A stretch of 64,000 nucleotides of DNA from Balanoglossus misakiensis. Lineage: Eukaryota; Animalia; Hemichordata. The notes below the pieces were generated by a model that saw only the letters and a program-made list of their open reading frames with translations, was not told the origin of the DNA and did not search any database. The stretch is from the NCBI GenBank assembly GCA_040954595.2, contig CM082581.2:8603413-8667412 (forward strand). The letters are read 5' to 3'. Position 1 is the first letter of the stretch; the number at the start of each line of letters is the position of its first letter. Positions 2,394 to 29,283 of this stretch are shown piece after piece. The position numbers were made by a program, and so were the translations under genes.

Positions 2394-5300
2394 ATGGGTA
2401 GGTATAAAAGCGAGACCGCATGTATTCATCTAAAGCCAATCAAAGCTCACTTTTAATTATTCTCACGTGGATGTTTGTGTCCAGATGTTAATTTTTTTCA
2501 CTTGGTGCACACAATGTTCGTTCAACCACCTGTTCGAGACACCTCGAATAAATTGCTGGCAAACGCATTCTCAGGAATCAACCGCAATTGCAGATATGGT
2601 ATTCCTTTATCTCTTTGCCGAGTTTTTTTTTTAATTCATTTTTTGAACTTTCCCCTCGAAATACCAGATTTCTACAGTTTGACCAAGTACAGTTGTCTAT
2701 GTGTGGTGCTGGCGCTGATGGGTGCCGAAATCGCGTCCGCTCGACCGGCGCGGCCCCAGAGAAAAGACCACCAATCGCCATCGACTGAAGACGCATTAGA
2801 AAGCAAAGTGGCCGAACTCAATCTAGCACGAAGCAAGATTTTGGTCCTACAAGATACAACGAAGGAGGAATACGACAGGCTTGTTGAGGTAGGTTGTCAT
2901 TTTCGTTCCGTTGTCCGCCATTGCCATCATGATGTCGTTTAATTTTTTTTGTCGCGGACGGGAGTTTCGCATTACCTGCTTCAGAAGGAAATACTAGTGG
3001 AATACATTCATTTATTTTGGTTTGCGGATAAATCCTTAATCACCATTGAAAATAGAAACGTGAATGAATGACTCGCGTCGGTAACGGAACCCTTTCGCGT
3101 TCCTCTTTGTCGCGCGGTGGTTATTTTGGTGTTTTCGTGTACGAAAGTTCCCTACAAGTCTCGGAACCGACTTTCACAAAAAAGAACAATCAGCGCCAGA
3201 AGAGCGTGTGGGTCAGCCTGAGAGCACAAACCTTTGTGGCGGCGTTTTGGTTCAAAGGTCATTGTCTGTATACCTGAGCAGGCTGTGCGGCCATTACAGG
3301 ACGGCAGACGGGCAGTCGTTCAACAGGAGAGACGACTAAAGTCTAAAAGATCTACGCACCAAGTATGCCTACACGTCTCGTGAAGTGAAATTGAAAGTGT
3401 GGGTAGCATCTCAATAATCGGTAATCTGTTCGGGGCGGGAAACAGTTCTTCGAATTTAGCAGAAACAGTCTTCTGAGTACACCCCGCTTACGTTCAATGC
3501 ACTTTGTACTCTTCGCTGCGACGACCTTTTATCCCGGCCTTTTAAGACCTTGCTGAATAACCACATATTTACCAGGTTGTATACTTTATTTTGTTTCTTT
3601 TATTGACCAGGACTACGGCGGCGAAGATGAGTTCAGGACTGAAATGAGCGATCTTGGTGATATGGGTCTTCCTCGTTCCAGCAGAAGACGATCCGAAGCA
3701 ATAAAGGGCAGGAAGGTACGTCACACTGTTCAGCGGTGTTTTGGTGATGTCACACCTTGCGGTCATCAAAAATACCGCGACTTGGAGACAGACAGGGCAC
3801 TCTCCCAGCGCGCAATGCGACTGTTCTGGCAGTTCGAACTCCTAATACTACGGTATATTTAACAATAAAGCAAGAATTCGGTCAATTTTTTTTCAAGTTT
3901 CTGATTTGCGGCACATAATTCATATAGTTTCATTTTCAAAATGTAAATGTTGAAATTCAGTGAACAAGATCGAGTTAGGTCAACGACAACACAAAGATCA
4001 GGCGCATACTGGAGATAGAATATTTCTGCGTGCAGCTTTTAACAGGTAGTTTGAGAAAAACTGGCGACAAATTTAAGGAATGTTGGCGTCTCTGAATGGG
4101 GAACTTCATGTGTGCATGTGTATGCGTATGTTAAAGCCACTTAGTCACCATTTGTTTATGGAACAAGCATTTTTATTATGCAACCTAAAATAGCGACGGG
4201 CGTGTTAATAGTATTACTCTGACATCACGTCCATTGGAGGTTAAAATTAGATGATAAAATCTCTGTGACGTTGACCAAGGAAGCGCGTTACGACATCAAT
4301 GTTTGTGTGACGTTTTCGGCAAGGGTGAAACTCACGACACGTCAGTGAGTCACCCCGTCTCATTTCAAAGGCACGCGCACATGCACAAAGGTGTGATTAA
4401 GCAATCGATTAAAAACGTTTAGAACACCGACCAACCGGATATTTGCTCGCTGGGACGACTGTCGTTATCGCCCGTTATCTGATATATATTTGAACATATT
4501 CCAATTGATTTTAAAAATCGATTGACAAACACCCCAACTTGAACCCTCTACCTCAATTTTCTGTCGCTAAATGTTCAACTTTTGCCCAAGTGTAAGATTC
4601 TCCGCTTTTTTTTACTTCACAGGGGAGCAAGCTTCTACGTGTGCTTCAAAGCCTTCTCGATGACCTTGAGATCTACAGCTCGTTTGGAGGAATCCTGACA
4701 GAAGATGGCGACAGCGAGGAAATTCTGCCAATATACAGAGAAGTGAAAAGTGTTGTGACCAGTTTGAAATCAGTGGTAAGCAGAAAAACGATGCAAGTGA
4801 CTTCTTAGCGCACAAATTGTGGATTTGCTCGAATTTGGGTTCTGTGGCCTTACGAATTGTCCTTGAATAGCTTTAACGAATCCGTAGAGCTCTATCTATT
4901 TTAGGCTAAGTGTTTTATACGTAGGTACAGCCGCGAAGGTCAATCTGTCATGAGAAGTGTTTATACACTTCAGCGTGTTCGACTCACCCCCAAACCCCGG
5001 CTGAACCTGACCTATTCCAATATCGTAACCGCGATAGACACCCACATAACATAATTGTCAGTGGATCCTAAAATTGGTCATATGACTCATACAGAATTGT
5101 GACGTCATCATGCCTGCCCAATGACACTGACACCAGTGCAGCTCAGTTGACTGATTTCTGCTGTTTTACATGTGCTGAGTGCGTCACGATGACGTTTCGC
5201 AAATCTCGTCAACTTCATGCAAATAAAAGCTATTTTTGGCTCTGTTAAATTTCAAACGGATTGATTTTATAATATTTGAATGTGTCATGTTTTATGATTG

Positions 5301-5654
5301 TCCTGTCAAACTGACCACAACTCTTCTTCCTTCTCGGTATGACAGTTGGGGGCAGAAGTCGAGGAGGATTCTCCAGAGACCGACCTTTCATCGTCGGCGG
5401 AAGACCTCTCAGCGGAGAGGTTCGTGTACGACCTGCATCTGTACAACTCGATGGCCAAACAGAACATCGAGAAAGTGTTGGAGGCGTTAGGCCAGGAAAC
5501 CGGGAAAGGAGAGAGAAAGCAAAATAAGGAGAGGAAGAGGGGAAAGAATAAGAAGGGGAGAAAGAACAAGAAAGACAGAAAAGACCGTGGCAAATCAAGG
5601 AAAGAGAAGAAGAACAGAGACGAGAGACGGAAGAAAGACAGAAATTTGGATTAA
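2394..5654 (+). CDS. ck1: secreted putative long-chain four-helix cytokine-like protein (~263 aa) with K/R-rich C-terminal tail
   Basis: Exons 2394-2397 (ATGG|gtaggt), 2668-2888, 3611-3715, 4623-4775, 5346-5654; all GT-AG, phases 1,0,0,0, open frame. MDFYSLTKYSCLCVVLALMGAEIASA|RP signal peptide; helices ...LNLARSKILVLQDTTKEEYDRLVE, VLQSLLDDLEIYSSF, ILPIYREVKSVVTSLKSVL, RFVYDLHLYNSMAKQNIEKVLEAL. Paralogous to ck2. Gene model is solid; cytokine identity is inferred. Confidence 0.8.
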
Positions 5655-8600
5655 GCGCGCGCCCAAACTGACCGTGTTTATTTTATGTGTGGAAATATCA
5701 CAAGGATAAACAGGGATTACAGACGAACTTGTGCACGGATATTCCGTTGCTCGGACCGTTGACCCGATCATACACATACCTGGTGACAGGTGTCATTTTT
5801 TTCCTTATACCCTAGGCATCCGAACATACAATTGTATGTTGTTCGCCTTCCCATTTAAGTCGGCTGTCCGACAGCCTTTCAAGTATTTGTTATGCAAATA
5901 ATTATAGTATGACCGATAAAAGTCGGTTTGCGATATTCAACGCAGTTAAAAGATTGAAGAATTTCCCACTAAGATCTGTACAGGATCGATCAAAATGTGT
6001 GCAATGATGGTCACATAAATTCCATAGGCCGGGTTCGGTTGAACGCCTGGCTATAGATTACTTTAATGATAACTTATTCTCGTTTATGATCACTTACTCA
6101 GTTCAACAGAACGAATGTATTTTTTTCTTATTTATTGCCAATTTATGTATACTTTAACGTCGCAAATGATAACAAACAGAGTACTTATTTTTATGTAGGC
6201 AGGTGATTTTGAACATGAAATGAAGTTAAACTTGAAGAATACTTAATATTTATTTACTTAAACTCTCGATAAAATCGATCAGGAATTTATGCTTGAAAAC
6301 TCCCAAAGTTATATTTGACAAATAATAAGCTTACTTTAGTATTTTAGCGTCATGACGTATTTATTATATATGAGATTTTTAAAAAATGTCCATGTTTTTT
6401 GTGTGTTTTTAAGAGTACAATGCTGTTATTCCAAGCGATTTTCTTGTTATTGTGTTATTATTTTAAAGACCTCGCGGTGGTCGGTGAGGGGGTGTTAAGA
6501 CTCTTGCACCAGAGGCTGGCAGCTTTAAGAAGTGAGAACCGGATGCGCGTACGCGTCGTCTGCCCATATAAGGGCAGACGTCTTTGAGTAAATTGTATAG
6601 CCGTTGGCCGCGTCATATCACGTACAATAGTCAAGCAGTATGGCCGCAGTCACGTGGCGGTCATTTTCTGAATCTGAGGGGAATCCCCAATTGGCCGACA
6701 CGTCAAGGCTAAAGGCGCTGCTGTCAATGCTATACCGCCGAGGTGTTTAGTTATTACAAGGTCTTTCGTAGCTTTTAGTGCAATTTATCCAGGTTCCGCG
6801 TTATATTTTGAGTACAATAAAGAATTTGTTTTGACGTCAACCAAAAATCGTTGCACTGACACCCCCTATTTATCATCGATTTAATCTCAGCAATCGTCTT
6901 CTGACTCATATCAAAGTCAACCCTAAACCGAAACTCCGTTGCTCGTCTGCTGAGACTTTAATTCCTCAGAGATTAAAATCATGGTGACGCCTGTATGCCT
7001 TCTAAGCTCTACCTATCAATTTTGTCCCAGTGACGTAGAACTTTGCGGGGTGAATGACCGCCGTTCCTTAGCGCTTGGGCACAGTTATGTAAGACAGTGC
7101 GCCGCGAACGTTGGTTTTGAAAAAAAAAACATAGGCCTATTGCGCCAAGGCCAAGCTATACGGAATAACACTAAACAAGACCAGCAGTGTTTCAAAATTC
7201 ACTTTACCACCACTTCAAGTCAGTTTGGTTAACTTTTGTAAAACTGACGGGAAAATACTCCCTATACATCCAACCATTTTGCTGAATCCACAACATTTGG
7301 CCGCTTTCTTGGAGTTTCCTTCACTACCATCTGTTTTATTCCGGCGCGGGTCAAAAGTGAAAGATGACCGCATCAAAATACCCATTTTAATGTAACTTGT
7401 AAAGTTAACATTCGCAACTACAGCAATGTATTTGCTTTACAGCACACACGATAAAAACTGATCCACTCACTGGACTCCCCGTGCTGGAATGGTTATTCCA
7501 GCAGGGGTAATACCCACCAGCCATTTTTAGTGGTCGCTCACTTTGACCCCATTCCAAGGGAGATCCCGCCCTGACCTAAATACCGCAGCACCTGTGTCAG
7601 GTGCGCGGCGACAAACACAACTGCAACGTGTTGGTATTTATTGCAGCACGGTCACTCGCTGTCGGCACACCGTACATGTAGGCTAACAAACAACAGAGCG
7701 GAGCGCACATTTTCGTGTTTTAAACAGTCTGAAGCACTGAGCACCGACCTTTGGACACCGTATAATAAGTAGCACGCATTCGGAGAATCAATACTCCTTT
7801 CAAAATGTCGTATTTCTGCGCATGGCTGTTGTAGCGATCTCACTTCTGTAGAAAGCCGCAACCAAACTTGAAAGCGGTTGGTCTACAGTTCTGCGACACT
7901 CAAAACAATTATGGCATAATAAACAACGATTGACCATTCTGTTACAATTTATAGCATTTATTATAAAATAACCAAGAAAATATTTCATTAAACCAAAATA
8001 ATCCAATAACTCTTTTTCTGTACTATTATTAAAAATACAAAATCAATAAATAAAAGATCCAATGCAAATAAAGTAAAAACTGACAGTAAAATATAAATAA
8101 GTACACGGTAAAATATGAAAGATATATAATAAAAACCTGATAAAATATGATAAACTTGCAAAGTAATTCATGCAAATGTTCGGAATAAATTTAAAGTACA
8201 AGCCTTCACATTTCTACACATACAAATAAAGCTCCATGTCATATCATGTCATGTTGCTACACTATGCTTAAGTCCAGTATTTAATGCGAACAGCTGTTTG
8301 AACTGAAGGCCTTGGCGAAAATGTCTGCACATTTAAGTAGTGTATAAAAACCATATAGTGTATTCACAAAATTTAAATTTATCGGGCTTACACTTGACTA
8401 AGGCACCTGAGTTTGTAAAAATTGATTTTTTATAAATGATATAAAAATACATTAAAATAGTGAAACAAATTTTAAACACTCTCTTGAACGATATTAATAT
8501 CAGTGTAATAAATATACACGAAATAGACAGTTGCCTTAAATAAATAAATACATAAATACTGATTGAAGACATGTTTCTCATCAAATGAGATGATCTGTCA

Positions 8601-9616
8601 TGTTAACAAGGCTTGTCTCCTACAACAAATATCAATATGAGACACACCGTCACACTCAGGGCAGACAAATCTGTAAACAGATAGCAGGATGCTTGAATAC
8701 TCTTATGTGACAGCTGGAACTCTAGAAACAAATGCTAAATGGCACAATTTTAGAGAAATCTGTCCTTTTGGAACACCGACTATATATTCTGAACATGGCG
8801 TCTCCCTGTGTGCGATTTGCACATTTGCATTGAAGATTCTGTGTATACAAGGGCTGATAAACATTACAATTCAGGGGTACAGGGACCTCCGACAAATATC
8901 ACGAAAATCTTGACCAGTTTTCCTTGAACATTGCACTATCTCTAATAGATATAAACTTGTAAACACAAAGAGGAATGCCTGTGCTTGAAAGTATCAACGC
9001 CTAATGCTAAACTTAAAATCTCAAGTTGTCACTCACTATAATCTAAATTTCAAATAGGTTTATTGCGCCATTTCAGGTCTGATTTTTACTAGGCAGACTT
9101 TAAACCTGTTTCATAAACATCAGACGAGAAATGATTAAGCTTAAGACCGACTTGTATCAGTAATTATTTTTTTGTTAAAATATTTGTACAACAAATACTC
9201 AGCGGCTACATAGAGCCAACTTAAGGTGGGGCCAGAGAGCACGAAAATCTTGCTTTTTGGCTTTTGGTCAAAGTAAAAAAATAGAGGTACAGAAAGAGTA
9301 TTCATTACTACCAAAATAATGAAGGGGACTGACTTGATTTAACCGGAAATAGAATATTGACTGACGCCCTCAAACTGATGGGCGTGTAACTACATCCGGT
9401 GAGAGAAACCGACTGGGCGAACTGCTCACGCCAACTTTTGATGTAATCAAACGATGGCGTGTGCAATGTTTGCCATTCGGGCGCTCTGCTTCGGGTTCAG
9501 TGCCCCTCACAATTTCGATAGGATGCTCCTCGGGTACCTTGACGACACTCCACGGGAGTGAACGCGCGTGCACGCGGGCTTCAATATGGAACCCTCGTGC
9601 ACAACAAATTTGAGGT

Positions 9617-11760
9617 CTATTCGCCTCTGTTCTTGCGACGTTTGCCGCTTTTATCTTTCTTTCCTTTGCCGCTTCTGTCTTTCCTTCCATTTCGCTCTTT
9701 CTTTCCCTTCTTCCCTTTCTTGCCTGTTCTGTCTGTCTTCTTTCGCCCCTCCTTCTTCGCCCTTTTCTCTTTCCTTTTGTTTTTCTGTTCTTGTTTATCT
9801 TCCTCCTCATCCTCCTTCGCTTCGTCATCATCATCATCGTCATCATCATCATCGTCATCCCGCTCGTCAGTTTCATCAAGTTCTTCGGCAACTTCATCTA
9901 CACCCATCGCGTTTTCGCTTACGGCGTCCTCTAACATCTCGACTTCCTTCTTTGCGGTTGAGACGTACAGGTCAAGCTCGAAGACCCATTTGGCTTCCCG
10001 TTCAAGGGGATCAAAGTCCTCCAGTGTGTCTATGGTCTCTTCAACAAAATCTTCTGAAACATGCAGCTCTCCACGAATTCCAGTGAAGGAGCTCAACTGT
10101 GAAATAAACCGATTAAAAATTAACAGACTGATAATAGTATAAAAGTCATGTATGTCTGTATGTCTGTATGTCTGTATGTATGTATGTATGTATGTATGTA
10201 TGTATGTATGTATGTATGTATGTATGTATGTATGTATGTATGTATGTATGTATGTATGTATGTATGTATGTCTGCATGCCTGTCTATCCTTATCAGTTTA
10301 ACTTACCAAAGATTTTGTCTTGACAATTGTGCGCTGCAGCTGGTGTCCTATTTCTTGAAGGTCATTGTTTTCATTCTCAGACATTCCTTCCATGATCTTA
10401 TGAACGTGTGTCAGGTCCTTTATAAGTGTTTCAAACAGCTGGACGCGTTCCTGTCAATTGATGAAAAAAGAATTGTCGTACCTGTAGCTCTGCATCTAGC
10501 AAAAAAACTACTGACACCTTCATAGGCCGTTATGTACAGTAACCCCGTGCTTCGTTTTGAGACGTAGGGGCAAAATTCCGTAGCAAATGCAAACAATGAA
10601 TTGAGATAACATGAACCGAGGTCCCTTACCTGGCGACTTCTATACGAATCTTCTCGGGGGCCTGTCGGTCGCTGGTAGTCAACAATCTTCATACCCATGG
10701 AAACCATTTCATCCGTGAACTCCCGGCGGCTTCCATAAATATCCTGTGGTAATGAAAATGACAGTCAGTTGTGATTTTTCCCCCGTGTCTTGATCATACT
10801 CATTATAACGCTTGGTACATGACAGCCTGAATGAATGTACTACCACTGACCGCAAACGATCCAAAGTGACCACTTCAGTAAATCATGTCCAACCGGACTT
10901 GGTCGCATTCTTGTGTAATGACAGTGTTCACAAGCAAACTTACAGGGGGACATTCCCGGAATGAGCCCTCGTGTAAAATTTGGTGCTATTTGACAGGCAC
11001 GTAGGGTTTTCTAATGCGCTTGGCCATGTCTGTCTATCACCTCTCCGCGACACACGCGGTGAGCGCGACAGTGCTGTAGCGTAGCGTAGCCGGGTTGAAG
11101 GTTCGGGTGCGTGAGTCAACCATTAGGAATTCACCTCATTTGGATAACAACAGCTCCCGTGTACATGTACTTTGCTCCGGCCATCAAAAGACAAACACAC
11201 AGCTTACTCATGATCTATTTTAACACGGCAAGGGGCTCCGCTTGTCCGCGCGGTACGGTGTGGTGCGGTGTGCGGTGCGCTGCTGTGTTGGGCGCCGGAG
11301 TGGCCATATCTCGATGCGTTCAAGTCACATTTGACAAGAAAGAAAACCTCCAAACCTATTAACTCACCTCGAATTCTAAACGCCTTGCATTCGTTAAACG
11401 CTGTAAGTTCTTCACGTTTAGCAGAAGCTGTGCCACGTCCGGTCCGATGTTTACAGGACGAGCCGACGTTTCTTGTAACGCGGTTAACGTTGTCAGGGCA
11501 AGGAAAATCAAACTGGGTAGTTTTATCGCTGGAACAAAACAATAAATAAAGTATTAGTTAAGATTTTGCCAAGTGTTGTTTGAAACACATTGGGCCCCAA
11601 ATTGATAAGTTCAGCGTGGATCTTACAAGTCACAGCCAGGTACTTTGAATTCAGAGGTGTGTTGGTAGAATAGACGCACGCTTGTCGGCGATGTATCCTG
11701 ACAGCCACACCGTATAGATTGCAGAAAGCAGACCGCAAGACACGTGCTCTTACCTGGCAT
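9617..11760 (-). CDS. ck2: secreted putative four-helix cytokine-like protein (~301 aa) with acidic then basic C-terminal tail
   Basis: Exons 11760-11754 (ATGCCAG|gtaaga), 11528-11368, 10743-10630, 10450-10307, 10096-9617; phases 1,0,0,0. MPAIKLPSLIFLALTTLTALQETSA|RP; DIYGSRREFTDEM vs ck1 DYGGEDEFRTEM; AKWVFELDLYVSTAKKEVE vs ck1 ERFVYDLHLYNSMAKQNIE. Confidence 0.8.
10148..10271. repeat. (TATG)n microsatellite in ck2 intron 4
   Basis: Directly visible tandem TATG/TGTC units; source of the spurious MYVC ORF. Confidence 0.95.
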
Positions 11761-11867
11761 TTCACAGATCAAGTAATTGTACAGTGTTTTCTCCTAGAGC
11801 TTGTCGTTCAGACACCTGTTGCAGACTGAGTTGCGGTTAGTTGTCTTTTTTTGACACGGTGCCGTAG

Positions 11868-11875
11868 TTTATATA
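11868..11875 (-). promoter_or_regulatory. TATA box of ck2 (TATATAAA)
   Basis: ~110 bp upstream of the ck2 ATG; GAS-like TTCCAAGAA (11961-11969) and kB-like GGGGAAACTC (12007-12016) lie further upstream. Confidence 0.6.
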
Positions 11876-14800
11876 ATAAAGAAACCTGATAAAAAGTCCA
11901 AGATTTTAATTTCAGAGAGGGGCATATGGTTTTACCGTGCAGACGTTGCCCCAGCTGCTGTTCCAAGAAACACTGAGACTGGCCCATCACTTATATACAT
12001 GTAACAGGGGAAACTCTCGTTTGAATATAGCACTATGAATATAGTGACCCCTCATGGCACGTGACGACATAGGGGGATACACCGATTGATAAGATCTAAC
12101 ACACACGTGTAATATCCTAGCTCCCGTTAGTAATAAGTATTAGTGGTATATGATTTTTGTTTCTACAGAAAGTTTATCACGCTCATCTTCAGAATGAACC
12201 ATATTCTGTAAAGCAAGAAATTCAATATATCCTTTGACCTTATACTCAGTGTACCAATTATTGAACTTTTGACTTTGGTGTCGTACATGGGGTATGTACG
12301 CTGACCGCGATTCGGGTCAAAGTTCAACAAAACGAAAACTTGAAAATTTGCAATGATATTCTGATGGAATACCGGTGCACAAATTTCTATTTTGATGCGA
12401 CCGGTATATTGGAAGCGCGTTTGATATTTGTATCACCCGTGTCATGTATTTGCCAAAATCTGCCCCCCCCCCGTAAAAAAGTTGCCAAGGTACATGAGAG
12501 TAAACCGTTTCCCAGCTTAGCAATCATTTTTAGACGAGTTTACTACGGATAGCCGAGTTTCTTTCTACCCCTAAGTGGTTGCAGACGGCTGATTTTAAAC
12601 AAACACACATACATACATACATGTACATGCATACATACATTTACATGAATACATGAATACGTATATATACATTATAAATGTTTTTAATATTTGCTAATTT
12701 TGATTCTTGAAAATCCTCACCACGTCTTACTGCCAGCGACTCCTGAAAGCGAGAAACGGAACAACAATCAAGAATGGTCCAAAGTTCGAATGAAATGAAA
12801 CTAAACATATTATTGTAATATATTATTTACCCTGTATGTGTGGGTTACATACGTTCTATGCTACTGTCAATGGCAAAGTAAAACAGAAGTTACCATATTC
12901 AGATGTAAATAGGTTGGAATTTTCAATGAAATATTCTGATCTCTGTTGGCAAATACGCCGTCAACTCTGGTATGTTACTCCAGAAATTATTCAAATCTGA
13001 CCACTGTATTACTCACAAGCTTTTCCTCGATTTTAAACATGAAACATCCCACGCGCTTGATCACATGTTTATCAGTCAAAAATATTGACTGTTTCGATAT
13101 CGATTGTCCATTTGGCTACTTGTCTTTGCTGGCCATGATTGTGTGCGTTGGCGCGGTGGTAGATACAGATCGCGGTATGTGGTATGCTGACGTCTATAAA
13201 GCTATACGCCATTTAGGTCTATTTGCCATTTATAAGACTTATACGTATAAACCGTACTAACACTATAAAGGCCTACATGCCATTTCAGGTTGGTTCATTA
13301 TCAAACTAACTTTGATGTTAATGTCCAGTATATTAAACATGGTAGATCATATCATCAATTTTAAGTGTAAACGTAATAATATCTTTTTAGGTATTCAGTT
13401 AGGCTTGCGTATGTTTTCGTAAATGCAAAACCACCTGTTGGATTTCTGAACCTGGTGCTCCCCCCCCCGATAAGTAAACTTACATTGCCGTAGAAATACC
13501 TGCAAAATTAAATCAAAATCATTTTTATTCACAAGTTACTCGACGGAGGTAACTCGAATGACGGAAATTCTCGGGTGATACTTTGTAAAAAATTTGTATC
13601 ATGGACCGGGATCATCGCAAATCTTCCAATAGTTGACGGAAATTAAAATGATTATTTTTTTTGTCGGAATGACTCACTGTAAAAAAAGCCTTGAAATCAA
13701 TTAGAGTTTCATTTTCAAATTGGACAGAAAAGTCTACTGAATTTTCGCATTTCTGAATGACCACATGCTCCAGAATGGCTCCCAGAATTCAATGAGTCAT
13801 ACCTCTGCGGCACTCCAAAACTTGGACTTTGTCATTTGTAACAACTTGTATCCAAGAGATGCCAGCACAACAGGCGGAAAAAATTAAGTAGAATTTTTTA
13901 TTGTCGACTCGACATTAAAGAACTAAGAAAGCCGAAATCACTTCACTTGCAATGGGTATTCTTATTTGGATGAACATCATTTGGGAAGCACACGGCAAGA
14001 CTGGAAAGCCCAAACTATCTCAAAAATGAAAGCTGCACCAAGCGTATATATGATCCAGCGTGAACCGCCCAGTACTGCATACTATTGTACTGTGGACATT
14101 TGCCGGGCTCCGAAAACCCCCGCCATTGTTCTGCTTTACAATCGAGCGACGTCATTTGAATTATGACCCCCAGAGTTGTTTACAAATACATGTCACTGTG
14201 ATCTACGGCACAGACGCAGTTCGTTACACGTCTTCAGCCATACACGGGAGAAATGAAAGTTGTTTGGGAAAATCACAGCAAAGTGAGCCACAACAAAACG
14301 AAAGAAAGTGCATAGTGTGCTCTCTAAAATGGAATTCCAAAATCTCGTGGAAACTACTATTTTGAATCTTACCCAAATAAAACACAGAATACATGTGCGC
14401 GAGGCAAGATACCACTCCCAATGATGAACGACGTCGCGTTTACAAGTCAACTTGGTTATTTTTTATGTCTATCCCAATAATTACATTCGAAAGATCATTT
14501 GATCAGAAATTCTCAGTGCGTGGCTCGGTATTTCAGTTTTTCCCTCATATTTTGACAGTTGATTGAACTGTAGTTGACTGATCAGAAACTCAATCGCAAT
14601 GAGGTCTTCTTTCTGATATTAGTCTTCGATTGTACCGAGGAAATGTACAACTCGCTTACTATCTATATTGGCAGTGTTCGTCAAGATTTTCTATCTACAA
14701 ATATTGAGGTTCAGATAACATCGTGATAATCCACTAAAATGTATATTTTTATTCAAAAATACTATGGTCCACTAAAACTACAATTCACAAAATATATAAT

Positions 14801-15589
14801 ATATATAGTATTATTGTACTTATTGAAAACGACGCAACAAATTACTTTGCTCCATAATACTGCAATACAAATATGACCAATATGGTCTCTTTAAACATCT
14901 TGTCTGATAAAATGAAAGACACCGCACAAAAGGCGGTACTCGGTATCAAAATAAGTTTTAAAAAAATACACACAATAACACATATTCAATATAATGATAA
15001 ATAGTACTTAACTTATAAAGTAAAAATAATACTTTACAATATAACATGGTTCGAAAAATGCTAAGGCTCTCAATTTCCAGCTACTTCTCGAAGAAGACAT
15101 GTTCTTCAAATATCGCATATCTTGTGTCCAAATATCAGATACGTCTTGGTGACATACAAAGTTTTCTTTATCAAAGAAATACATGTACCATGTACATAAA
15201 ATTTCATTTCACACGTGAAATATTAACTATGAAAGGATACATTATAACAGTATACATATTGCCAAGTATGTACTCCTTGAATTATTCGTTTAAGTCAGAA
15301 ATACCCAATGAATAAATTATTTATATTAAAATATAGCTGTTTTGTTTTTAAGAATGAGATACGCTGACCACATCGACGAGTCAAGAATACAAAATATACG
15401 ATGTTTGAAATTTAACAAAATAAATAACAAACCATGTTGTCATGGCATTCCGTTCAAATCTCATAGAGACGATAGATGAAAAAAGTGTTCTTGTCACGTG
15501 TACTTTCATACAAAAAGGGCGTTTGACTTGAAAACAATAAAAATAGATTTATGAAATAATGGAAATCGTGTTTTCCCTATACATTAGCT

Positions 15590-15842
15590 TCACATCAACC
15601 GGACTAATTTGGAGGTCAGTCGCCTGACGTTATACTGGTATGAACGAAAGATTTCCAGCACAACCAGCAGACTGTTCCTGGATTTGGCAATTTTGGGAAT
15701 TTTCCATTTGAGCTTCCTGGCCCGCTTCCCACTCTCTTCGTACAGCTGCGGGGATATAAAGGTATGAAACAGCTGATTAAAACGATTGTAAGACAACAGG
15801 CACTAGCTGGCATGTCGAATTATTTCTGTTCAAATCCCCCCT

Positions 15843-15882
<40 letters not shown>

Positions 15883-18183
15883 TCTCGTTGTACTTGAGAA
15901 CACCAAGCCAGGATAAGCAAGGTGCAATGTAATGCGGGAGTCTCAAACATGAGACCCAAAGCCACGTGATTCAACTTACGAAAGATTCGAAGCCATCCAG
16001 AACTGCTTGTAACGCGTAAAGCGTCGTTCTCAGCTGTAACTTAACGCGCCCTCTTTGTTTCTTAACATGTTTCTTGAGGAGTTTTTGGAAAGCCTGCAGA
16101 TCAGCAACGATGTCCACCACAAGTTCAACCATACTCGTATCAAGCATCTAGACGATGAATGGAGAACAAGACACGAGTAATTATCACACGCATATTTAAT
16201 GGTCAAGTCTGATAAACTATGTATGGATTAATTTATGAATGGACGACACGAGGGCCTGACCCCGAGAGGAGTTCAACGTCTGAACGATTGCACCCCATTG
16301 TCTCGTAAAACATACATGTATCCGGCTTACAACACATATACATGTAGCATTCAGCCAACACCTGTGATCTTTCTATGCTAAACAACTTCTAGATCACATC
16401 AACCAATCACAAGCTTCACGAAATGCACCTGATGAGTGACACATTTCGATTGGATAGTTGTCGGCCAGCTCATTTGTCATGAGGTGCCACGTTTTCACCA
16501 TTTGAAACTCAACGTTTGAAGTACAAACATCGTGGCTGAAAGTAGGGACAACAGCGACCTATATATCCATTACCCTGAGCAATTTCCGACAACCAAGTGA
16601 AAGTGAAGGTCGTGATTGTGACGATATGGACTGGACTTTGGAAATTTTTGTAGCCTCATTTACGTCAATGTACATGAATCAGCGGCCACGGAAAGTGACT
16701 TGACGCTACCATGCATTGCGCACAACGTTCACTGTAAGTACATGTATCAGTTTTCAGTCGTTTCTTTTTCTAAACATGTAAAATGAAAGTTATTCTTATA
16801 GCTATAGTACGTCAGCACTTCAAACAAAGTTCTGTTTCGTCGAAAAAAATGAAACTTTCAGGCGAAACGGTGTGCGAGGTAAAAATGAAACATGAAACCC
16901 CAACCAAAGGTCGAGCCCAGCGCAGAGATTACAGACAAAGATGGCCGAAGCAAGTCTGTGAATCTTGAAGCAGTTCTTTCAGGAGGAGGCAAAATATCTT
17001 TCAAAATGAACAGGATACTAGCCTAAGGTTCACTGGTGCAGTGCAATTTCTGAATATTGCACTGCACTATAAACACCGGTGTAATATTTCAGCTGACAAA
17101 ATGCAGTTGCACGTGCGTATAATGTTCAAAAAGGACAACGAATATGGCCGGGTGTATTGTCGTAAACAAAAATAGTCTCCTCCCGCACCCGTTAGACCGA
17201 AGATGTCTTACCTCATTTTCATAATTTGTGAGCACATTATCGATTACGACATGCGATAGTTCATATATCCCTATAGCTTTCCTTATCGCCTGAAAGCAAA
17301 TAAAAGAAAAAAATGTCAAATTATTTTTATGTTAAATAAAAATCTGCCAATTATTACTCTTAAATCAAAACATTGAAATAACATGACCGTTCTCTTAGTT
17401 TATCGTTAGGTTACAGTAACTCGCGACCTATCGCATGTGATCCGTGTCCTTGTAGTACGATTTTAACCAGTTATTCTGATTTTAAAAAATATGTAAAAGC
17501 TGTGAGCACGTGATGTTTTCAAGGAGACTGTTTCTCAGTAAGATTAGTGGGCAATTACCTGTTCTTTCTTCTGTTTATGTAGCAGTTGTTTATTTGAGGT
17601 TGTCAGTCTCACTGCTTCTGCCGTTTCTTCCGCCAAACGATTTACCTTTGATAATAGTGGGTGCGCGTGTACACAGGTCGCCGCGACCACCATCCACACG
17701 AAGGCAAAAACACGCGACTTTTCACAGCCTAGTCAGGAAAAGAGAGTTGGTTGGTTGATTGATTTGTTGGTTGATTGATTGATTGATTGATTGATTGATT
17801 TATTTATTGATTGATCATTGGATTGATGTATGGAAGGATGGATGGTTGGATGGATGGATGGATGGATGGATGGATGGATCATTCGTTCGTTCGTTCGTTC
17901 GTTCGTTCGTTCGTTCGTTCGTTCATTCGTTCGTTCATTCATTCATTCATTCATTCATTCATTCATTCATTCATTCATTCATTCATTCATTCATTCATTC
18001 ATTCATTCATTCATTCATTCATTCATTCATTCATTCATTCAATGGATAATGACACGGTTAGCACACCAAACCACACCACACCACACACACATGTTTTCCA
18101 TCACCGAAAAAAATGCTCAATACAAATCAAACCCATGGTTTACAAATTATCTATTCAGGTAAGATTCGAAAAGACCTACCCAT
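15590..18183 (-). CDS. ck3: secreted putative four-helix cytokine-like protein (~191 aa)
   Basis: Exons 18183-18180 (ATGG|gtaggt), 17728-17559, 17289-17212, 16147-15980, 15745-15590; phases 1,0,0,0. [23 protein letters not shown]|[14 protein letters not shown]...[18 protein letters not shown]...[27 protein letters not shown]. Clear paralog of ck5. Confidence 0.82.
15851..15879. repeat. (CT)n microsatellite in ck3 intron 4
   Basis: Visible CT dinucleotide run. Confidence 0.9.
17746..18041. repeat. Compound microsatellite (GATT)n-(GGAT)n-(TTCG)n-(TTCA)n in ck3 intron 1
   Basis: Directly visible; explains the FIHS/FVRS ORFs. Confidence 0.95.
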
Positions 18184-18314
18184 AAAACGGCTTGTCATTA
18201 CTTCTCAATTTCTACAAATGGCTCCGCCGGGATAAACAAGTATACGCGCGGTGGTAGCTGATGTTGCAAGACAGTAGGCAAAATAAAATACCAGATCCAC
18301 ATACAGAGCCATGC

Positions 18315-18379
18315 TATTTAAACCTGTATAGTTCCGTGAAATTCCCCGACCCGACCAACCCGACCCAAAGGGATTTCAC
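18315..18379 (-). promoter_or_regulatory. ck3 proximal promoter with GAS-like and kB-like sites
   Basis: TTCCGTGAA 18332-18340 overlapping GGGGAATTTCAC (minus, 18336-18347); GGGATTTCAC 18370-18379; TATA-like TTTAAATA 18315-18322. Confidence 0.45.
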
Positions 18380-21300
18380 CTCGACGGGTCATCGGGAAGT
18401 TGGCGGTTAAAACTGTTTGCGAGTTTTTTTCGTGAGACGTTTCAAATCAACAATAGACAAACCGATACTTTTTAAAACGAAAGTCGACATTACCACCAGT
18501 ATTGAAAAGGACATTGTATAAGAAATATAAACAACTTCGGTTTTATGAAGTTGTTGTTATCATTAATGTAATCTTTTAACATAAGCGAAGAAGAATTTTC
18601 AATAACTGTTCATTGAATTGATTTCATGAACCCATTGTTTATCATGGTCGAAACTACACACTATTATTTTTGAAATATTATAATTTTCAATAACGGCAAA
18701 GTTGCAAAGTGTTCTTTCTTTGTTTATGCTCATTAGATTTTTTACTTTCGAGTCACTTTACTTGTTCTTTTCCAGATCAGTCAAAAGCTACGGATTTGCT
18801 TCAAGAGTCAAAAACCGGATTTTCAGGAGGAAAAAAATTCCAAGAGAAGTTTCGCTTTTTGTTTCTACCTGTTATTGGGACCACAGATGAGCCACCCCTA
18901 ACACCTGTATGGAGCTTGCGTCACCCATGAACACCCGGAAGTCGTTGAGATCTACGGATTTCTCGGATTACTCATAAACATTTCTGTGGGGCACGTCACA
19001 TTCAACACAGGTAAGAAAATAAAACAGGTCATGATTGTAGTATGAGCTATCACATCAAATTCCACCATGTATTCTTTTATGGATATGTGTTGTTTACATC
19101 TTAGTACTAGTCCAAATTATGAAAAAAAAATCTCGCCAGCGCTTGTATGGTATAACTCAAACATTTAATACCGACCGTTGGCATCAATAACGAAAGGACA
19201 AAGGTCAACGGATTGTGCCCCCACCCTCCATGATATAAAATATACCTGTCTTGCCTATATATGACGGCGAAACTCAGTGAGCATGAAACATCTCGGATGC
19301 ACAAATTACAAAAAATGAAAGTAGTGTGAACTCCTTGAAAATGTCGGATTTTATCGTCTTTCAATATAACTCAAGAAAGTGTCAAGTCAGTGGTTTGTCT
19401 TTGGAGACTCTCCTTCGGAAAAACTAGAAGGAAACAAAAAGCTCGAGAAAGTTCATCTCACGGTCAATCGGAGACCAATATTTTAATATTGACGCATGCA
19501 GTAAAAATATTCTTCTGTCAACTGCAGTTCAAATCAATTTTGAATTCATGATGTTATTAGAGCGGTTACTCCCCGACATACAAAATGTGTTTATATGCCA
19601 CTTCATGTCGGACATTGACCCCTGAAGCTATCGCGTCAGTCAAGGTATTCCACTGGCTATTTTTAGATTATTGTTTTGTGGTAAAGGCCCCGGATGCGCT
19701 TCAGGTAACCTACATTCTGTGGATCAACAACATGAACAAATTGCATTTTCGCCTGGTTCGAATTCTGTAGTGCCCATCCACCCCACACTTCCCCCTACCC
19801 TCAAGTCAATGCTTCATAGCTATGTCGCTACCATGTTTCCTCAGGCTCTTTCATAACAAACAACACTGGTCCAAAACAAAAGAGTTATATCAAAACTGTG
19901 TTGTTGAAATTCTGCAAAGTCAGCTCAGACTCCGGCCCGGTCCACACTCATGCGGAAACCCCGCCAATGTTTTCGGTTGCCCCGACGGACAATTGAGGTC
20001 AAAACTACCTTTGACCCGGACATAGTCAAAACTGGTGTTAAAGTGAAAGTAAACATTTTGGAAACCGTTGGATCACGCGAGTTACTAAAACGAATTTATA
20101 TCTGTACATCTTTTGTTTACAAAATTAACCTTCGAGATATAACTATGACAGTAATAACCAATGGAGTTCTATGATCGTAAAAAGTCCACATTGCACATAT
20201 TGGTATCAATGTGGGAAAAACGAGGTGGCATGGTGTGCGTTTTATCTAAACCACCATTTTTTCTACATTTACTTGGACTATGATTTTGCTTAAAACTTAG
20301 CTTTAAATGTTGAAGGATGGTTGTCGCTGGCAGCTTGCCAGTTGAAGACGGCGATGGTACAGGCGATATTAACGTCCAACTGCAGACTTTTAATAGCGCC
20401 CTCAACAATTAGGGTGAAAACTCTTTCAAACAACAACGAATTCTGCGAATAAAAGATTCCTTGAAGCATAGACATTAATTAATAGAGGGCGTGATATTGT
20501 TTACGAATTTGCCAGTCAAAAACGGAATCGGCCAGATAGACTTGGTCTCAGTTCAAGTCGGTGGTTTGGTCCTGTATACTATTCTTTTTTAGAATTGATC
20601 CGATTGGTGGCGCATGTTTCTCCATTCCGCCGACGGTGTTTCTATGCAGTTCGACAAATGGTTCACATTTATTAGCTTTTTATTAGGTTAAATCTGATGG
20701 ATTCATGCCAAATATAAACATGCTTAGCAGGACGTGATGTCATGTGGGGTTCATTGGAAATGGTCTAGATGTTCCAGGTCCGTGACTACTGTAACCCCGG
20801 ATGTCCCGCGCGAACAGAAGACCGCCCTCGTATCGATTGCCGTTCAGGACACGAAGGAACTATAAAACACGACCCGGCGCAAATGCTGACTTACAGGGCG
20901 GAGCCACTTCAACAGAAGTGCGTGATCGTGTATACGTCCATGTACGTACATGTATGATATGCTCGTGAGAAGGGAGAATCGGTCTGTTTGCAAACTTTCA
21001 CCCCGCAGTGGCTTCCTGGGTACGGGTGACCCGCCCTAGTTGACCGCCCCTTCCCATTGCCCGGATCACTTCTTCGTAAATGTCGTGTAGGGCGTCGACA
21101 CCGTTGAACCAAAATCCTGCACACGTGACGTCATTGACATCGATCGAAGCAAACAGGCATGGTGACCCGGTCCCAGTCGTGCAGTATTGAGAAGTTTGTA
21201 CCAAGATATGCATAGTCACCAGAGATTGTCTGTAATTTGATAGATTGCGTGAAATGGAAGTTTTGTTCTGAAAAAAAACTCTCTGGATGGGTAATTCAAG

Positions 21301-21758
21301 GGGTACGCGAAAGCTACAACAAGTGTCAACAAGCTACTGTGTATGAGAGGGATACTTGAAAATATACTGCCGTGATCTGTAGTGTGCTTAGACAGAACAA
21401 TTGAAAAGTGACCCGGGAAGGAAATAACTAATCGTCTAATTAAAGCAGAAATGTGGCGAGTTTGTAGGAATAAGTTGTGGTTTCGCGAAGATTCATTAAC
21501 ACCTTGCCGCTCATCATCACGCTAAATGACGTCGACTGCCACCCTCATAGAATTTATTTGACAATAGCGATAATCAGCGGTCCGAACGGATGTACGTGGA
21601 CATGACCAAAGAGGCATAATTACCCCTTTGCTATATTTAGAGTTCCGAGCATAATTCAGACTAACTTTGGAGTTTGTGCACGTGGGAGTAGCAAATTATC
21701 AGGAATGGTCTTTATTTAGAACAGCCCCCGGTTCGAAAATCTTTATGGTGGGCACGCA

Positions 21759-21765
21759 TATAAAA
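21759..21765 (+). promoter_or_regulatory. TATA box of ck4 (TATAAAA)
   Basis: ~85 bp upstream of ATG 21847. Confidence 0.6.
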
Positions 21766-21846
21766 AGCTGTACACTTGCACCAGTTTTGTCGTAATTCGC
21801 ATAGATCATAACCCGGACAACTTTCTCACTTTGTTTGCCGTACGGA

Positions 21847-24800
21847 ATGAAAAAGGGGGAGTGTAAGTTATTTTAAGTTGTTGATTTTATCGTCCCGATT
21901 TCACTACAGACCAAATGGCATTATTCCTAGTAGTACTGTGTGCTTGCAGTCCACTGTAATCCCTTGCAGTGGTTGGCCATTTACGGCGGTCGTTGCCCTT
22001 TCTATATATCGCCATTCACTTGCTAGGGTAGAAGGTGTGCTGTTGTTGGCCTTACTGCGATACGTCATCAAATAATAATGCGTTTATCGCCAATCAGGCT
22101 ATTTACTCAACAGATACTGTCTTTGTCGAATGTGTATATTCTTAGGACTTTCCCTATGTGCTATATCGTCGAGTACACTTTTGACTGTACAAATGCTAAT
22201 TAAAGTTGTGTTGTGGTCATGATGAGAACTACGTACCAGGAACGCCATCATGGAGCACTGGGGATCGAGACAAGACACTTACTCTAGGGACCTTAGCGGA
22301 GAAACTGTAGTCGATACGCCCAACGGAAACGTTTCAGAATTAACTAAAGCAACAACCTAATGTCCCGGAGGTTTTCAATCCCGATTTAACGCGTAGGTGT
22401 AACCCGTACGGTTAACCCGCAGTAGTGCCAGATACTGCCTTCACGGGTCATTTCGATTTTAATTTCCGATGACACTTACGAGCTCTCCGGCTAATGCGTG
22501 CCGTATAGAGGGGATTGGCACATTCATTAACCGAGCATTAAAAGTGAAAATTGCCTATGCAAATGAGCCCCGAGGAATGTAGAATAATTCTATTCTGTAA
22601 TCATAATCCTCCAGAGACAATTCGGCATTACCATATATTTTCGTTGTCGCTTGTCGCCGTTTCTTCTGAAGCAACTTTCCTCGCTGGTGGTTGCTGCTTG
22701 CGCCGTTTTTTGTTCAATATTCCGGACATCGTGGACGGAGCGTTCTCTTTCTTGGAGTTTTCTGACTTGCAGCGATGCATTGTGGGTGACATTCATTGCA
22801 TAGTGGTATTTTTCCGCCGGCCGTTGACCATGCGCCCATCTGCAAAAGGCCCTTGACTTTCACAGACCTCGTATAGCGCTGTACAATCTCACTTTACTTC
22901 ATACTTCAACAACAATATTTTGCTCTTTTCCCCCTTCAGGTACTAGTAATTTGCAATTTTATTGCGCGCTGGTTGCCTTGTTCCATGGCGGACTGGGAGT
23001 TCTGTCGGTGCCGATATCCATCTCGAGAGCCGCCGGGCCAGAAACCGCCAAGCTGCCGGACCTCTTCATCCTGAACAAGAAACTCAACGTGTTGCACCGG
23101 ACGACGACCAGTGTGATGTTCGCAGTGGAGGAGCAGATGATAAACGGGATTGGAATGAAGCAAATCCAGGTCGGTAGATCTCCTTCATCTCGCCACGTGA
23201 ACTTGACACATTTGATATCGGGCAAGTGCGGAGAGCGGAATGGTGAATGAAGATAGATTTTGAAATGTGCCTTGTTCTTAGCACTGCAGATAGTTATCCA
23301 TAGACCATTTAATGTAAGAATGATTGTTTTCCTGACCAAGATATACTTTCTCTCATTTCCCTCCTCTTAGCCGTGTTGGATTAACGATGAAATGATTGCC
23401 AAGGAGATTTCACATTTGGAGATAATGCTGGTCATGAACTCTATCGATATTCAGGTATGTCACGGTGCAGATAAAATTTAAAGCGATAAAACTGTGGGTA
23501 TTTAACATCGCTCATCATTTCTGTTCATTCATTAATTGAATTGTCATACTTCAAGTGGCCTATAGTACACAGGTGGCTGACAGACAACCTTGTAAGATCT
23601 AGAGTGGGTCCCAACTGACACAGATCATATAAAATTATTACCAGACAGTGCAACTATATCAGACGGTATAGACTGGGCGCCTGTACAGGTACATATGTCA
23701 AGTGGACGGTCGGGGGGTCGGAGCACTTGTTGAGCGGCTAAGATGAAAATGCACAGAGTGGCGAGACACCACTATTTTTTTTAATTATTCCATGGACTGA
23801 ATCGGAAGATGTAATTAATACTAAATTATTCAGCATATGTTGATTTTAGTTCAAGCATCGAATAGGCTACCAATACATCAATTACATGTACATTGACCAT
23901 GACCGCGCCTATAAATGGGTATTTCTTGCACAAAGATAGCCTGGACGGTATATCGATCGTCAGCCAATCCTCTCTGTCCACATTTTAAGTTTCATCTCCC
24001 CGAAAATCCGGCCATACATTTCCATTTGCGGCTTAGATATCACCAGTGTGCGTTGAGAATGTACACTCAGTTTTGCTAACCTTATAACAGGGTAAATCGT
24101 TTGCAACGCTGGGTGAAATATCCCCCAACCCTTTATGGCCGTGCTGACAGGTTCCTGATAACAAACAGACACGAGATTCCTCTCCTGATTATGATGCCCT
24201 ATATATTCGCCACGGTAATGATTTGACACATTCTTGTCTGGGAAAATGACAAGTTCATTAACATACTAAATAACGTGACAGTTATTGTGCCGCCGTCCGT
24301 GGTGCTAAAATATTACATTCTTCATTTCATCTGAAAATAATTATCAGTTGCTCGTAGCAGCGACAAAGCAATTTCACTGCTCGCCCGGATGCTCTACTTA
24401 GGCACTGCGAAAATTCTAATTTACCGGCGGAATATACATTTTATTTCACCTTATTGGGTAAATTCATTTGTTAAGCGATCAGACAGCTGTCCTGACGGGA
24501 ACTGTCAAGGATGTCCTGTCTCAAGAGTTTCCAACATGTTTTTTGAAAGACTGAAAAACAGCAGAGGGAATATATTGACACACAAAGGTTGACGGCGACA
24601 AGACGCGATATTAGAATTAATTGCTTTCATCAAAGGCTCTTTGCACTGCAATATTTCAAGTGTCGCATCATCATAGGACATTCACGCCATATAAATCTAG
24701 CCTCACTTTTAATTGGCTTCTATGTTCCGTGATGTTTCAGGTGATCGCATGCGACACGTTGGTATAGACTAGGAACTTTGCGTGCGTTTAGAAAGCAATA

Positions 24801-25394
24801 TTATCGTTCTCATGACCAATATCTGGAACGCGCAAGCAGAACTTCTGATTATAATACAACTTTATTTTTTTATATTAGGAATTTTGGGATTTACTTTTAC
24901 GGATTGAAGATGACCTTTTGACCTTCAGAGTTATATTTGTGGATTTAAGGAACATCTTACGGGCATCCGGTACCTACTACGATTTGAGCCTGGAACTTGA
25001 CCTTCTCAATTTTTCGTTGAACCTCGTAATAACCGAAATACAATTCACGGTACGTATTATTGGTAGTATTCAAATTATGCATTGCTCTTCCAATTGAACA
25101 ACGGACACAGAGAAATACTTTGATATATTATCATTCAGTCAGTTTCATCACGACAGCTCTTTTAGGACATTCATTAAAAACTTATCTTTGAAGCAAAAGT
25201 AATTATCCCTTCTTTTCTGAAATTAGCTGCACATGCATGGCGTCTGGGAAGACAAGCCAGGGGTTTACCCCGAGAAACAGTTTCTGGTGCAGGAAGACGA
25301 CTGCCATCTTTATCCGTCTCAGCTTTACGACGTGCTGACCCGGTTTCGATCCTACCAACACAACGTGAGAAACCTTTCGAAGAATCTTTCGTAG
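21847..25394 (+). CDS. ck4: secreted putative four-helix cytokine-like protein (~222 aa)
   Basis: Exons 21847-21862 (MKKGE T|gtaagt), 22940-23169, 23371-23454, 24879-25049, 25227-25394; phases 1,0,0,0. Signal-like CALVALFHGGLGVLS; helix B LLLRIEDDLLTFRVIF; helix D LYDVLTRFRSYQHNVRNLSKNLS* matches ck3 [15 protein letters not shown]. Mostly missed by the ORF track. Confidence 0.8.
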
Positions 25395-27690: not shown

Positions 27691-29196
27691 TCAAATCGCG
27701 TCCTCGCAGACGGCCGACCAGCTTGACTTGTTCCGATCGTCTTCGTCCCGTGTCGTCTTCCTCTGGCGCCGTGATAAGCTGCCCCGCTTGCAAAAGTTGG
27801 ACAGGTTGCGAGTGAAACGTCTGACGTTGGGTTGGTACTCTGTGAATATCTCCAGGATAATTAGAAGGCTTTCCCTCTGTCTTGCCTTCTTGGGCACTTT
27901 CCATTTGGAAGTCTTCTGTTTCTGGTGATCCAGCTTGAACAACTTCAAAATAGAGATGCACGTAGCCTATTTATTGTATGATTGTGTACGTGTACATTTT
28001 CAAACATCAAGCTCATTGTAAACCACCTGTTGTTTTTACGGGCATTATTTTTTGGATAGAAGAGTCTTTAGGTCTTTTAATTTAGTACACACTGATGTGA
28101 CTAAATTTCTGTTACTGTGTGTTTTCTAAGACTTACCAGAGACTTGAATCCTGTCAGTACTTGATCCAAAGCTGATGTCACGTTCTTAAGACTCGACGAT
28201 ATGATGGTGATTTCCCAAGCCTTTTGCTCGTGCTTTTTCAATATCTTTCTCAAAACAGTTAAATTGCCAATGATGTCTTTTACAACTGTTGCGGTTGCAT
28301 CTTTGCCCGAGTCTACCTGCAATTATGTCAGAATCATTTACAACATTTGTTTATTGAGACACAAAGTGACATAATCTACAGATTCAGAAATTCACCAACT
28401 CGTAAAAAATCGTTAACCTTACCTGCGCAGTTTTGAATAACTTGTCGATTGTTTTGTGTTGGATGGCCCTCACTCCAATGGAGTTTCGAATCTCCTGAGA
28501 AAAGTTACCGGTCACAGATTCCTAAACAATCAAAGCACTGATTTCGTTTGTAATTTGTGAGATCTGAGCATTTAAATACGTTTCGTACAAATTCCAACGC
28601 TGAAGTAAATTTAGGGACAGAATGATCATTCATTTCAATTTCACAACAGTATTTAATACATTTAGTTCGATTGAACTGATAATTTAAAGCAAAAATCTAG
28701 TACCTTACCATTCCTTGTTTCCCATTATTTGAAACATCTAATGATGACTCTTTCACCTTTTTCAGAACAGTCCTGGTTTTCTTGGCCAGATTTGTCACTT
28801 TACTCAAGAGCGGGTCTGCGTCTGCGCAGAGCAAAGCTACTACCAGTACACAACAAACGACAGGCAGGGCTTCATGATGTGATTGATGCAAAAAAAATCA
28901 AAGTGTAGATAGTGTTAAGGGTTTGATCGCCCGAATAAAATATCGCGTGGTTGTCGCCGCTGAGGCACACTGAGAAGTGGCCATTTTGTCAATGTTCCGT
29001 GACTTGGGTTGTCGCAGGCTTTGCGCGGTGGAAGGCAATGTGGTAAAAACGTCACCATTCTTTCGTTTTCAACGCAGGCCAGCGCATGGCCGGTACGTAC
29101 TTGTAGACAAATGGATGCAGGTTCACGCAAGCTCCAGGTGAAAATTGGAAACAAAAGCCGTGCCCGAATGTACTTACTTCTTTCACGGAAAATCAT
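27691..29196 (-). CDS. ck5: secreted putative four-helix cytokine-like protein (~236 aa)
   Basis: Exons 29196-29178 (MIFRER A|gtaagt), 28869-28709, 28521-28423, 28316-28137, 27942-27691; phases 1,0,0,0. TLPVVCCVLVVALLCADA|DPLLSKVTNLAKKT; KWKVPKKARQRESLLIILEIFTEYQPNVRRFTRNL aligns ungapped to ck3. Two acceptors are weak GAAG sites chosen by paralog alignment. Confidence 0.8.
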
Positions 29197-29276: not shown

Positions 29277-29283
29277 TTTTATA
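29277..29283 (-). promoter_or_regulatory. TATA box of ck5 (TATAAAA)
   Basis: ~80 bp upstream of ATG 29196. Confidence 0.55.

Follow-up and report, generated by a model that had tools for sequence, protein, structure and literature searches.

A tandem cluster of five candidate class I helical cytokine genes in the acorn worm Balanoglossus misakiensis

The vertebrate genes IL6, CSF3, GH and PRL have introns in phases 1-0-0-0. Class I cytokine receptors, JAK and STAT have been reported across the invertebrates, and descriptions of their ligands come nearly all from vertebrates, flies and amphioxus. The stretch of DNA analysed here, hereafter the window, comprises 64,000 nucleotides (nt) of the hemichordate Balanoglossus misakiensis (assembly GCA_040954595.2, contig CM082581.2, positions 8,603,413 to 8,667,412 of the forward strand) and contains a tandem cluster of five intact predicted genes, g1 to g5, all adjoining within 27 kb. 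They probably add new members to an established kind of cytokine, in a phylum reported to be without it.

In a 2026 survey, IL-6 is confined to vertebrates; the same survey reports for Saccoglossus a receptor of the gp130/IL6R type and a JAK model that consists of the kinase domain only (PMC13203501; here and below, citations other than PMC13081863 refer to excerpts of the sources). Type I helical cytokine genes, one of them GH-like and several others besides, are present in amphioxus, and none has been detected in either acorn worms or sea squirts (PMC9010856, 2022). Ligands of the IL-6 family are described as not located in invertebrates (PMC8226699; PMC12284397), the former source citing an older report of a sea star IL-6-like molecule. 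The IL-6 of lamprey was not recognised until 2026, on structural grounds, in work that also gives the five exons and intron placement of IL-6 genes and a length criterion of 150-280 amino acids (PMC13081863). The genes for growth hormone (GH) and for prolactin (PRL) have five to six exons, and their products four conserved cysteines and two disulfides, absent from amphioxus GH-like (PMC9546618). Excerpts of four further papers (PMC13736523, PMC7161275, PMC4690019 and PMC5376476) contain nothing on hemichordate helical cytokines, and no paper describing helical ligands of class I from a hemichordate or echinoderm was found in the literature searched, which lay mostly outside subscription journals and took in no supplements.

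The gene plan and predicted protein anatomy

All five exon-4 peptides of a first-pass annotation of the window were located on the strands it had given (+,-,-,+,-), in open frames at 4641, 10438, 16123, 24891 and 28286. In the gene models, derived from the sequence itself, 20 of 20 introns have GT-AG boundaries and there is no internal stop (Table 1). The tiny first coding exon, the intron phases 1-0-0-0 and the leucine opening exon 5, which that annotation had described, recur in all five models, the phases being unambiguous in four of them and intron 1 of g1 being in phase 1 or possibly 2.

Splice sites were scored with a matrix of the 24 donors and 23 acceptors of the DOCK gene in the window, picked by consensus rules and hence somewhat biased to strong sites. 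Ranked against all GT and AG sites in positions 1-30000, 32 of the 40 model sites fall in the top 10% and 36 in the top 25% (median, top 1.8%), and the model junction is the best-scoring in-frame option at 18 of the 20 introns. The exceptions are two first introns: in g1 a phase-2 alternative scores best and the model ranks fifth of six, and in g5 the first acceptor is weak, while a downstream phase-1 acceptor scores higher and would remove most of the hydrophobic stretch. A six-frame scan of the window detects no sixth paralogue or pseudogene, and Rfam gives no match in positions 1-41000. Microsatellite arrays lie in introns of g2 and g3.

Judged from their sequences, the five predicted genes are real and not chance assemblies, because g3-g5 and g1-g2 are clear paralogue pairs (z 36 and 9.7) whose scores are reached by 0 of 300 shuffles. 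The pairs g3-g4 (z 4.8) and g4-g5 (4.5) also score above all shuffles. Identity is about 34% for g3/g5 and about 28% for g1/g2, in both cases without a stop or frameshift. A profile of g3/g5 detects g4 (0/300 shuffles), a distant relative by way of its last helix, and does not convincingly detect g1 or g2. When g3, g4 and g5 are aligned, intron 4 occupies a single column, and between g1 and g2 the positions of introns 2 and 3 match within one residue; the other offsets within subgroups, of up to 14 residues, fall in poorly aligned parts.

The picture that emerges is of two apparent subgroups, g1/g2 and g3/g4/g5, joined only by plan, adjacency and a sequence pattern in the predicted helix B. 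The first-pass annotation had described a helix-B pattern common to all five genes; the pattern tested here holds for four (g2 and g3 to g5), where it begins 12-18 residues into exon 4, and the fifth is not matched. A control set of 16,792 residues contains 10 matches to this pattern, which was picked after the sequences had been seen. Transcription of g3 and g4 diverges from a spacer of 3.6 kb, and g1/g2 and g4/g5 form convergent pairs; the cluster therefore probably grew by inverted duplications.

Each protein has one N-terminal hydrophobic stretch within its first 35 residues (11-residue window of 2.05-3.56 on the Kyte-Doolittle scale) and later windows of at most 1.23, so that there is no later transmembrane-like segment; a signal peptide is predicted from hydropathy at the N-terminus of all five. 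Four of the five whole proteins, and all five cores, fall within 150-280 amino acids; g2 exceeds that range, and without their tails g1 and g2 have cores of about 212-215. The g1 tail is basic (28 Lys or Arg among 51 C-terminal residues), and the g2 tail (86 residues) is acidic and then basic, with a trinucleotide repeat that encodes an Asp run just before the basic stretch. The mature proteins have no cysteine in g1, g2 and g3 and two each in g4 and g5.

Hydrophobic-moment peaks number one in exon 2, two in exon 4 and one in exon 5. AlphaFold models of single exons are compatible with a long-chain cytokine without identifying the fold: exon 4 of g5 is modelled as a two-helix hairpin (helix 3-36, turn, helix 41-59; mean confidence, pLDDT, 83), and exon 5 of g2 as a loop (1-13), a ten-residue helix (14-23) and a long helix from residue 29 (pLDDT 73). 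The short helix in g2 is likened to IL-6 because the C-D loop of IL-6 contains the same short helix (PMC7378365). Exon 5 of g3 and g5 reads as a proline-containing loop and one helix. A B-C hairpin in exon 4, and a loop with the last helix in exon 5, are thus predicted; these two elements of the helix layout proposed earlier stand in the g5 and g2 models, and its exons 2 and 3 fall outside them. Early in the predicted last helix lie a Trp (g2) and a Phe (g1), and a Trp common to g3 and g5 lies in the preceding loop, the register not being fixed; in the gp130 family, the aromatic hot spot of site III lies where helix D begins (in IL-6, Trp157; PMC7378365).

Weighing the cytokine reading against its rivals

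It is likely, with a probability of roughly 70%, that g1 to g5 encode long-chain helical cytokines of class I, which would signal by way of JAK/STAT and a receptor of the gp130/Domeless type. They would be secreted four-helix proteins sharing ancestry with the IL-6/IL-11/G-CSF/growth hormone group of vertebrates, exon 2 supplying helix A, exon 3 the A-B crossover, exon 4 the B-C hairpin, and exon 5 a second crossover with helix D. Binding to such a receptor would activate JAK/STAT. Expression would be inducible on injury or infection, from short-lived mRNAs, as the AU-rich elements and the STAT-type and NF-kB-like sites suggest; STAT feed-forward may operate on g1 to g3 because STAT-type promoter sites are present there. 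With their basic tails, g1 and g2 would be anchored on polyanions of the matrix or cell surface and so act at short range, and g3 and g4 would diffuse.

Several features fit the reading put forward in the first-pass annotation: the plan, the size, the signal-peptide-like start, the exon-level helix layout and the fast divergence. The weight of the gene plan lies in the tiny first exon, the exon sizes and the helix placement combined, not in the phases alone. Promoter and 3' elements, all of them consensus matches, lend the reading weak support as judged from the sequence. A GAS (STAT-type) site occurs within 250 nt of the start codon in three of the five genes (g1, g2 and g3; background 0.096). 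TATA boxes are present in three of the five, and AP-1 and C/EBP sites in none of the five promoters. In the 1.7 kb after the stops, AU-rich heptamers number 4:0, 6:0, 2:1, 1:0 and 0:1 (sense:antisense, g1 to g5) with about 0.45 expected; cytokine mRNAs typically carry ATTTA motifs (PMC3271213).

A number of results weigh against this reading. No search tied any exon to a cytokine family: Pfam returned such a family for 0/20 and 0/10 exon-level queries, exon queries of PDB sequences gave chance matches or designed helical repeats only, and Atlas gave no usable match. Fold searches with the single-exon models gave generic unrelated helical chains, with no cytokine among the matches listed. The two subgroups are without detectable homology, the six cross-subgroup pairs having local z of 0.1-0.9, not above shuffles, and the profile-profile comparison of g1/g2 with g3/g4/g5 an hhalign probability of 0.2%, inside the shuffle range. 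An IL-6 identity was rejected, the cysteine signature (Cx9Cx6GLx2Yx3F as printed in an excerpt of PMC3271213; two to four conserved cysteines) being absent from all five proteins, with a best of 2-3 of 6 positions and g1 to g3 without a mature cysteine. None of the IL-6 neighbours named in PMC13081863, such as TOMM7, was recognised in the window, the left neighbour lying outside it. Phase-0 introns are common, as 6 of 8 reconstructed DOCK introns are in phase 0; the AU-rich sense bias is absent at g5; and the GAS excess has P 0.008 uncorrected and about 0.09 for 12 motif-window tests.

The power of the searches is limited by their queries, which were exons of 50-80 residues. Large protein collections were covered with the exon-4 profile and the g3/g5/g4 exon-5 profile, g1/g2 exons 2, 3 and 5 being left out. 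A word-index search of longer proteins with the exon-4 profile gave 0 of 6,381 candidates at E 10. The same profile scores the five proteins themselves at E 1e-13 to 1e-18, and they seem to be absent from the collection because it would have found them. With the exon-5 profile, HMMER gave three hits among 1.84 billion representatives, all tandem-repeat artefacts. A resemblance to helix B of IL-11 and helix D of IL-6, which had been noted at first, was reproduced by no search. Proteins of Ptychodera and Glandiceps are present in the searched collection, so hemichordate orthologues are either very divergent or unannotated; finding no relative there is as expected for fast-evolving cytokines.

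Considerably less probable is a lineage-specific secreted helical family, of mucus, antimicrobial or matrix function for example, with a gene plan alike by chance. The tiny first exon, the inter-helix introns, the size, the exon-5 layout and the AU-rich and STAT-type features would then have to coincide in two dissimilar subgroups. An intron-phase screen of lamprey, moreover, yielded 14 short secreted candidates, among which the cytokine was the only helical one (bioRxiv 2026.05.30.728932).

Improbable, and somewhat more so, is an origin among the class II helical cytokines of the interferon/IL-10 type, with the last two exons fused and a tiny first exon gained, which would imply class II receptors and an antiviral role. 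Interferon genes, too, contain an exon that encodes a helical hairpin and end in two helices, two helices are predicted in g2 exon 5, and the basic C-terminal tails recall interferon-gamma. Lancelets have interferon homologues and lamprey has four-exon 0-0-0 interferon genes formed by fusion of exons 4 and 5 (bioRxiv 2026.05.30.728932), but in canonical interferon genes every intron is in phase 0 (0-0-0-0) and no tiny phase-1 exon is present (bioRxiv 2026.05.30.728932; PMC4929537). Exon 5 of g3/g5, with its loop and one helix, does not fit, and the proteins reach at best 3-4 of 7 positions of the interferon-gamma helix F signature and 2-3 of 4 of the type I CAWE motif (patterns from PMC3271213 and PMC4929537). 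The preprint just cited for lamprey reports no interferon fold outside chordates, from a custom set without a hemichordate (bioRxiv 2026.05.30.728932). Interferon identity was rejected, given the tiny first exon, the lack of a well-scoring first-intron model in phase 0 and the signature motifs; GH/PRL identity was likewise rejected, as the four conserved cysteines are not found.

A mixed cluster, in which one subgroup comprises class I cytokines and the other is unrelated, seems marginally less probable again. The lack of any sequence or profile link between g1/g2 and g3/g4/g5 speaks for it; the same five-exon plan, similar exon sizes, the exon-5 Leu in all five, the helix-B pattern in g2 and g3 to g5 and adjacency within 27 kb speak against. 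Chance non-coding assemblies or pseudogenes, for which the absence of a database relative might be invoked, are next to impossible given open frames across 20 strong junctions and the intact paralogues described above.

If the class I cytokine reading is true, the IL-6/IL-11/GH gene plan dates to the deuterostome ancestor and the ligands expanded independently of the vertebrate genome duplications. The cluster would then also supply testable ligands for acorn-worm immunity and regeneration.

Neighbouring genes and other features

The right-hand neighbours of the cluster are a cyclic-nucleotide-gated (CNG) channel gene and DOCK1. The former has a 378-codon first open frame with best matches 37-39% identical in the length range searched, and by its sequence is possibly of a divergent subfamily. 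The latter, a DOCK1/2/5-type exchange factor gene, runs off the right end of the window. One DOCK exon shares 93% identity with the DOCK1 of both Ptychodera flava and Glandiceps talaboti and 86% with that of Saccoglossus; among the matches listed, echinoderm and vertebrate rows are lower, and one horseshoe crab row reaches 86% over a shorter stretch. For the whole gene, among 12 proteins compared, identities are 71.8% (Ptychodera), 66.5% (Glandiceps), 60.4% (Saccoglossus) and 46-49% (others), values lowered by introns inside the alignments. By this one gene the DNA is probably that of an acorn worm akin to P. flava and distinct from it; a search with a CNG channel exon gave no such placement. 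If the cytokine reading is true, this DOCK1 and CNG channel locus would offer a synteny handle in the search for class I cytokines in other hemichordates and in echinoderms, where they are missing so far.

At the left end, a CpG-rich promoter-like stretch has a 25-codon open frame (77-3) that runs off the window and has no Pfam match; a gene transcribed away from g1 may begin here. Between g3 and g4 lies an exon-like segment that has a strong donor and is interrupted by stops in each of the three frames; it may serve as an upstream exon, either non-coding or alternative.

Table 1. Positions of the predicted genes and other features in the window
Feature	Position	Strand	Coding exons or details	Coding exon sizes (nt)
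g1	2394..5654	+	263 amino acids; 2394-2397, 2668-2888, 3611-3715, 4623-4775, 5346-5654	4/221/105/153/309
g2	9617..11760	-	301 amino acids; 11760-11754, 11528-11368, 10743-10630, 10450-10307, 10096-9617; paralogue of g1	7/161/114/144/480
g3	15590..18198	-	196 amino acids; 18198-18180, 17728-17559, 17289-17212, 16147-15980, 15745-15590	19/170/78/168/156
g4	21847..25394	+	222 amino acids; 21847-21862, 22940-23169, 23371-23454, 24879-25049, 25227-25394	16/230/84/171/168
g5	27691..29196	-	236 amino acids; 29196-29178, 28869-28709, 28521-28423, 28316-28137, 27942-27691; paralogue of g3	19/161/99/180/252
GAS (STAT-type) site	2228..2236	+	166 nt upstream of g1 start codon	
GAS site	11961..11969	-	209 nt upstream of g2	
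TATA-like box	11875-11869	-	upstream of g2	
Overlapping NF-kB-like and GAS sites	18332..18347	-	142-149 nt upstream of g3	
TATA box	21759..21765	+	88 nt upstream of g4 start codon	
TATA box	29277..29283	-	87 nt upstream of g5 start codon	
AU-rich elements 3' of g1	5655..7354	+	heptamers: 4 sense, 0 antisense	
AU-rich elements 3' of g2	7917..9616	-	heptamers: 6 sense, 0 antisense	
Trinucleotide repeat	9822-9859	-	Asp run in g2 tail	
Microsatellite arrays	10148-10271, 15851-15879, 17747-18041		in g2 and g3 introns	
Spacer	18199-21846		between g3 and g4	
Exon-like segment	18776-19010	+	between g3 and g4	
CpG-rich stretch	1-500	-	promoter-like	
CNG channel gene	31100-39177	-		
DOCK1/2/5-type gene	41447-64000	+		

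Comparison with known systems

The interferon homologues of lancelets and lamprey are like the proteins predicted for the cluster in being about 200 amino acids long, secreted, helical and clustered, and in having been found by intron phase and fold, not by BLAST (bioRxiv 2026.05.30.728932). They differ in their phases (0-0-0-0 or 0-0-0, without a tiny phase-1 exon) and in their signature motifs, which the cluster lacks. From GH/PRL and the amphioxus GH-like protein the cluster differs in its mature cysteines (none in g1 to g3, two each in g4 and g5), in phylum and in giving no sequence match.

Drosophila Unpaired 1-3 are three clustered, matrix-binding paralogues, and the Upd proteins are longer than those of the cluster. 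As ligands of Domeless they provide a precedent for invertebrate JAK/STAT ligands (PMC13203501), again with no sequence match.

Compared with vertebrate IL-6, IL-11 and G-CSF, the cluster has neither the IL-6 cysteine signature nor detectable sequence similarity, carries long charged tails in g1 and g2, and has no recognised neighbour of the TOMM7 type. It resembles them in its five coding exons, in a first intron that falls in the part coding for the signal peptide (seven bp from the start in IL-11, as in g2; PMC3271213), and in a size of 150-280 amino acids in four of the five proteins. The likeness extends to the predicted exon-4 hairpin, to the exon-5 loop with a short helix followed by the last helix, and to the AU-rich 3' elements.

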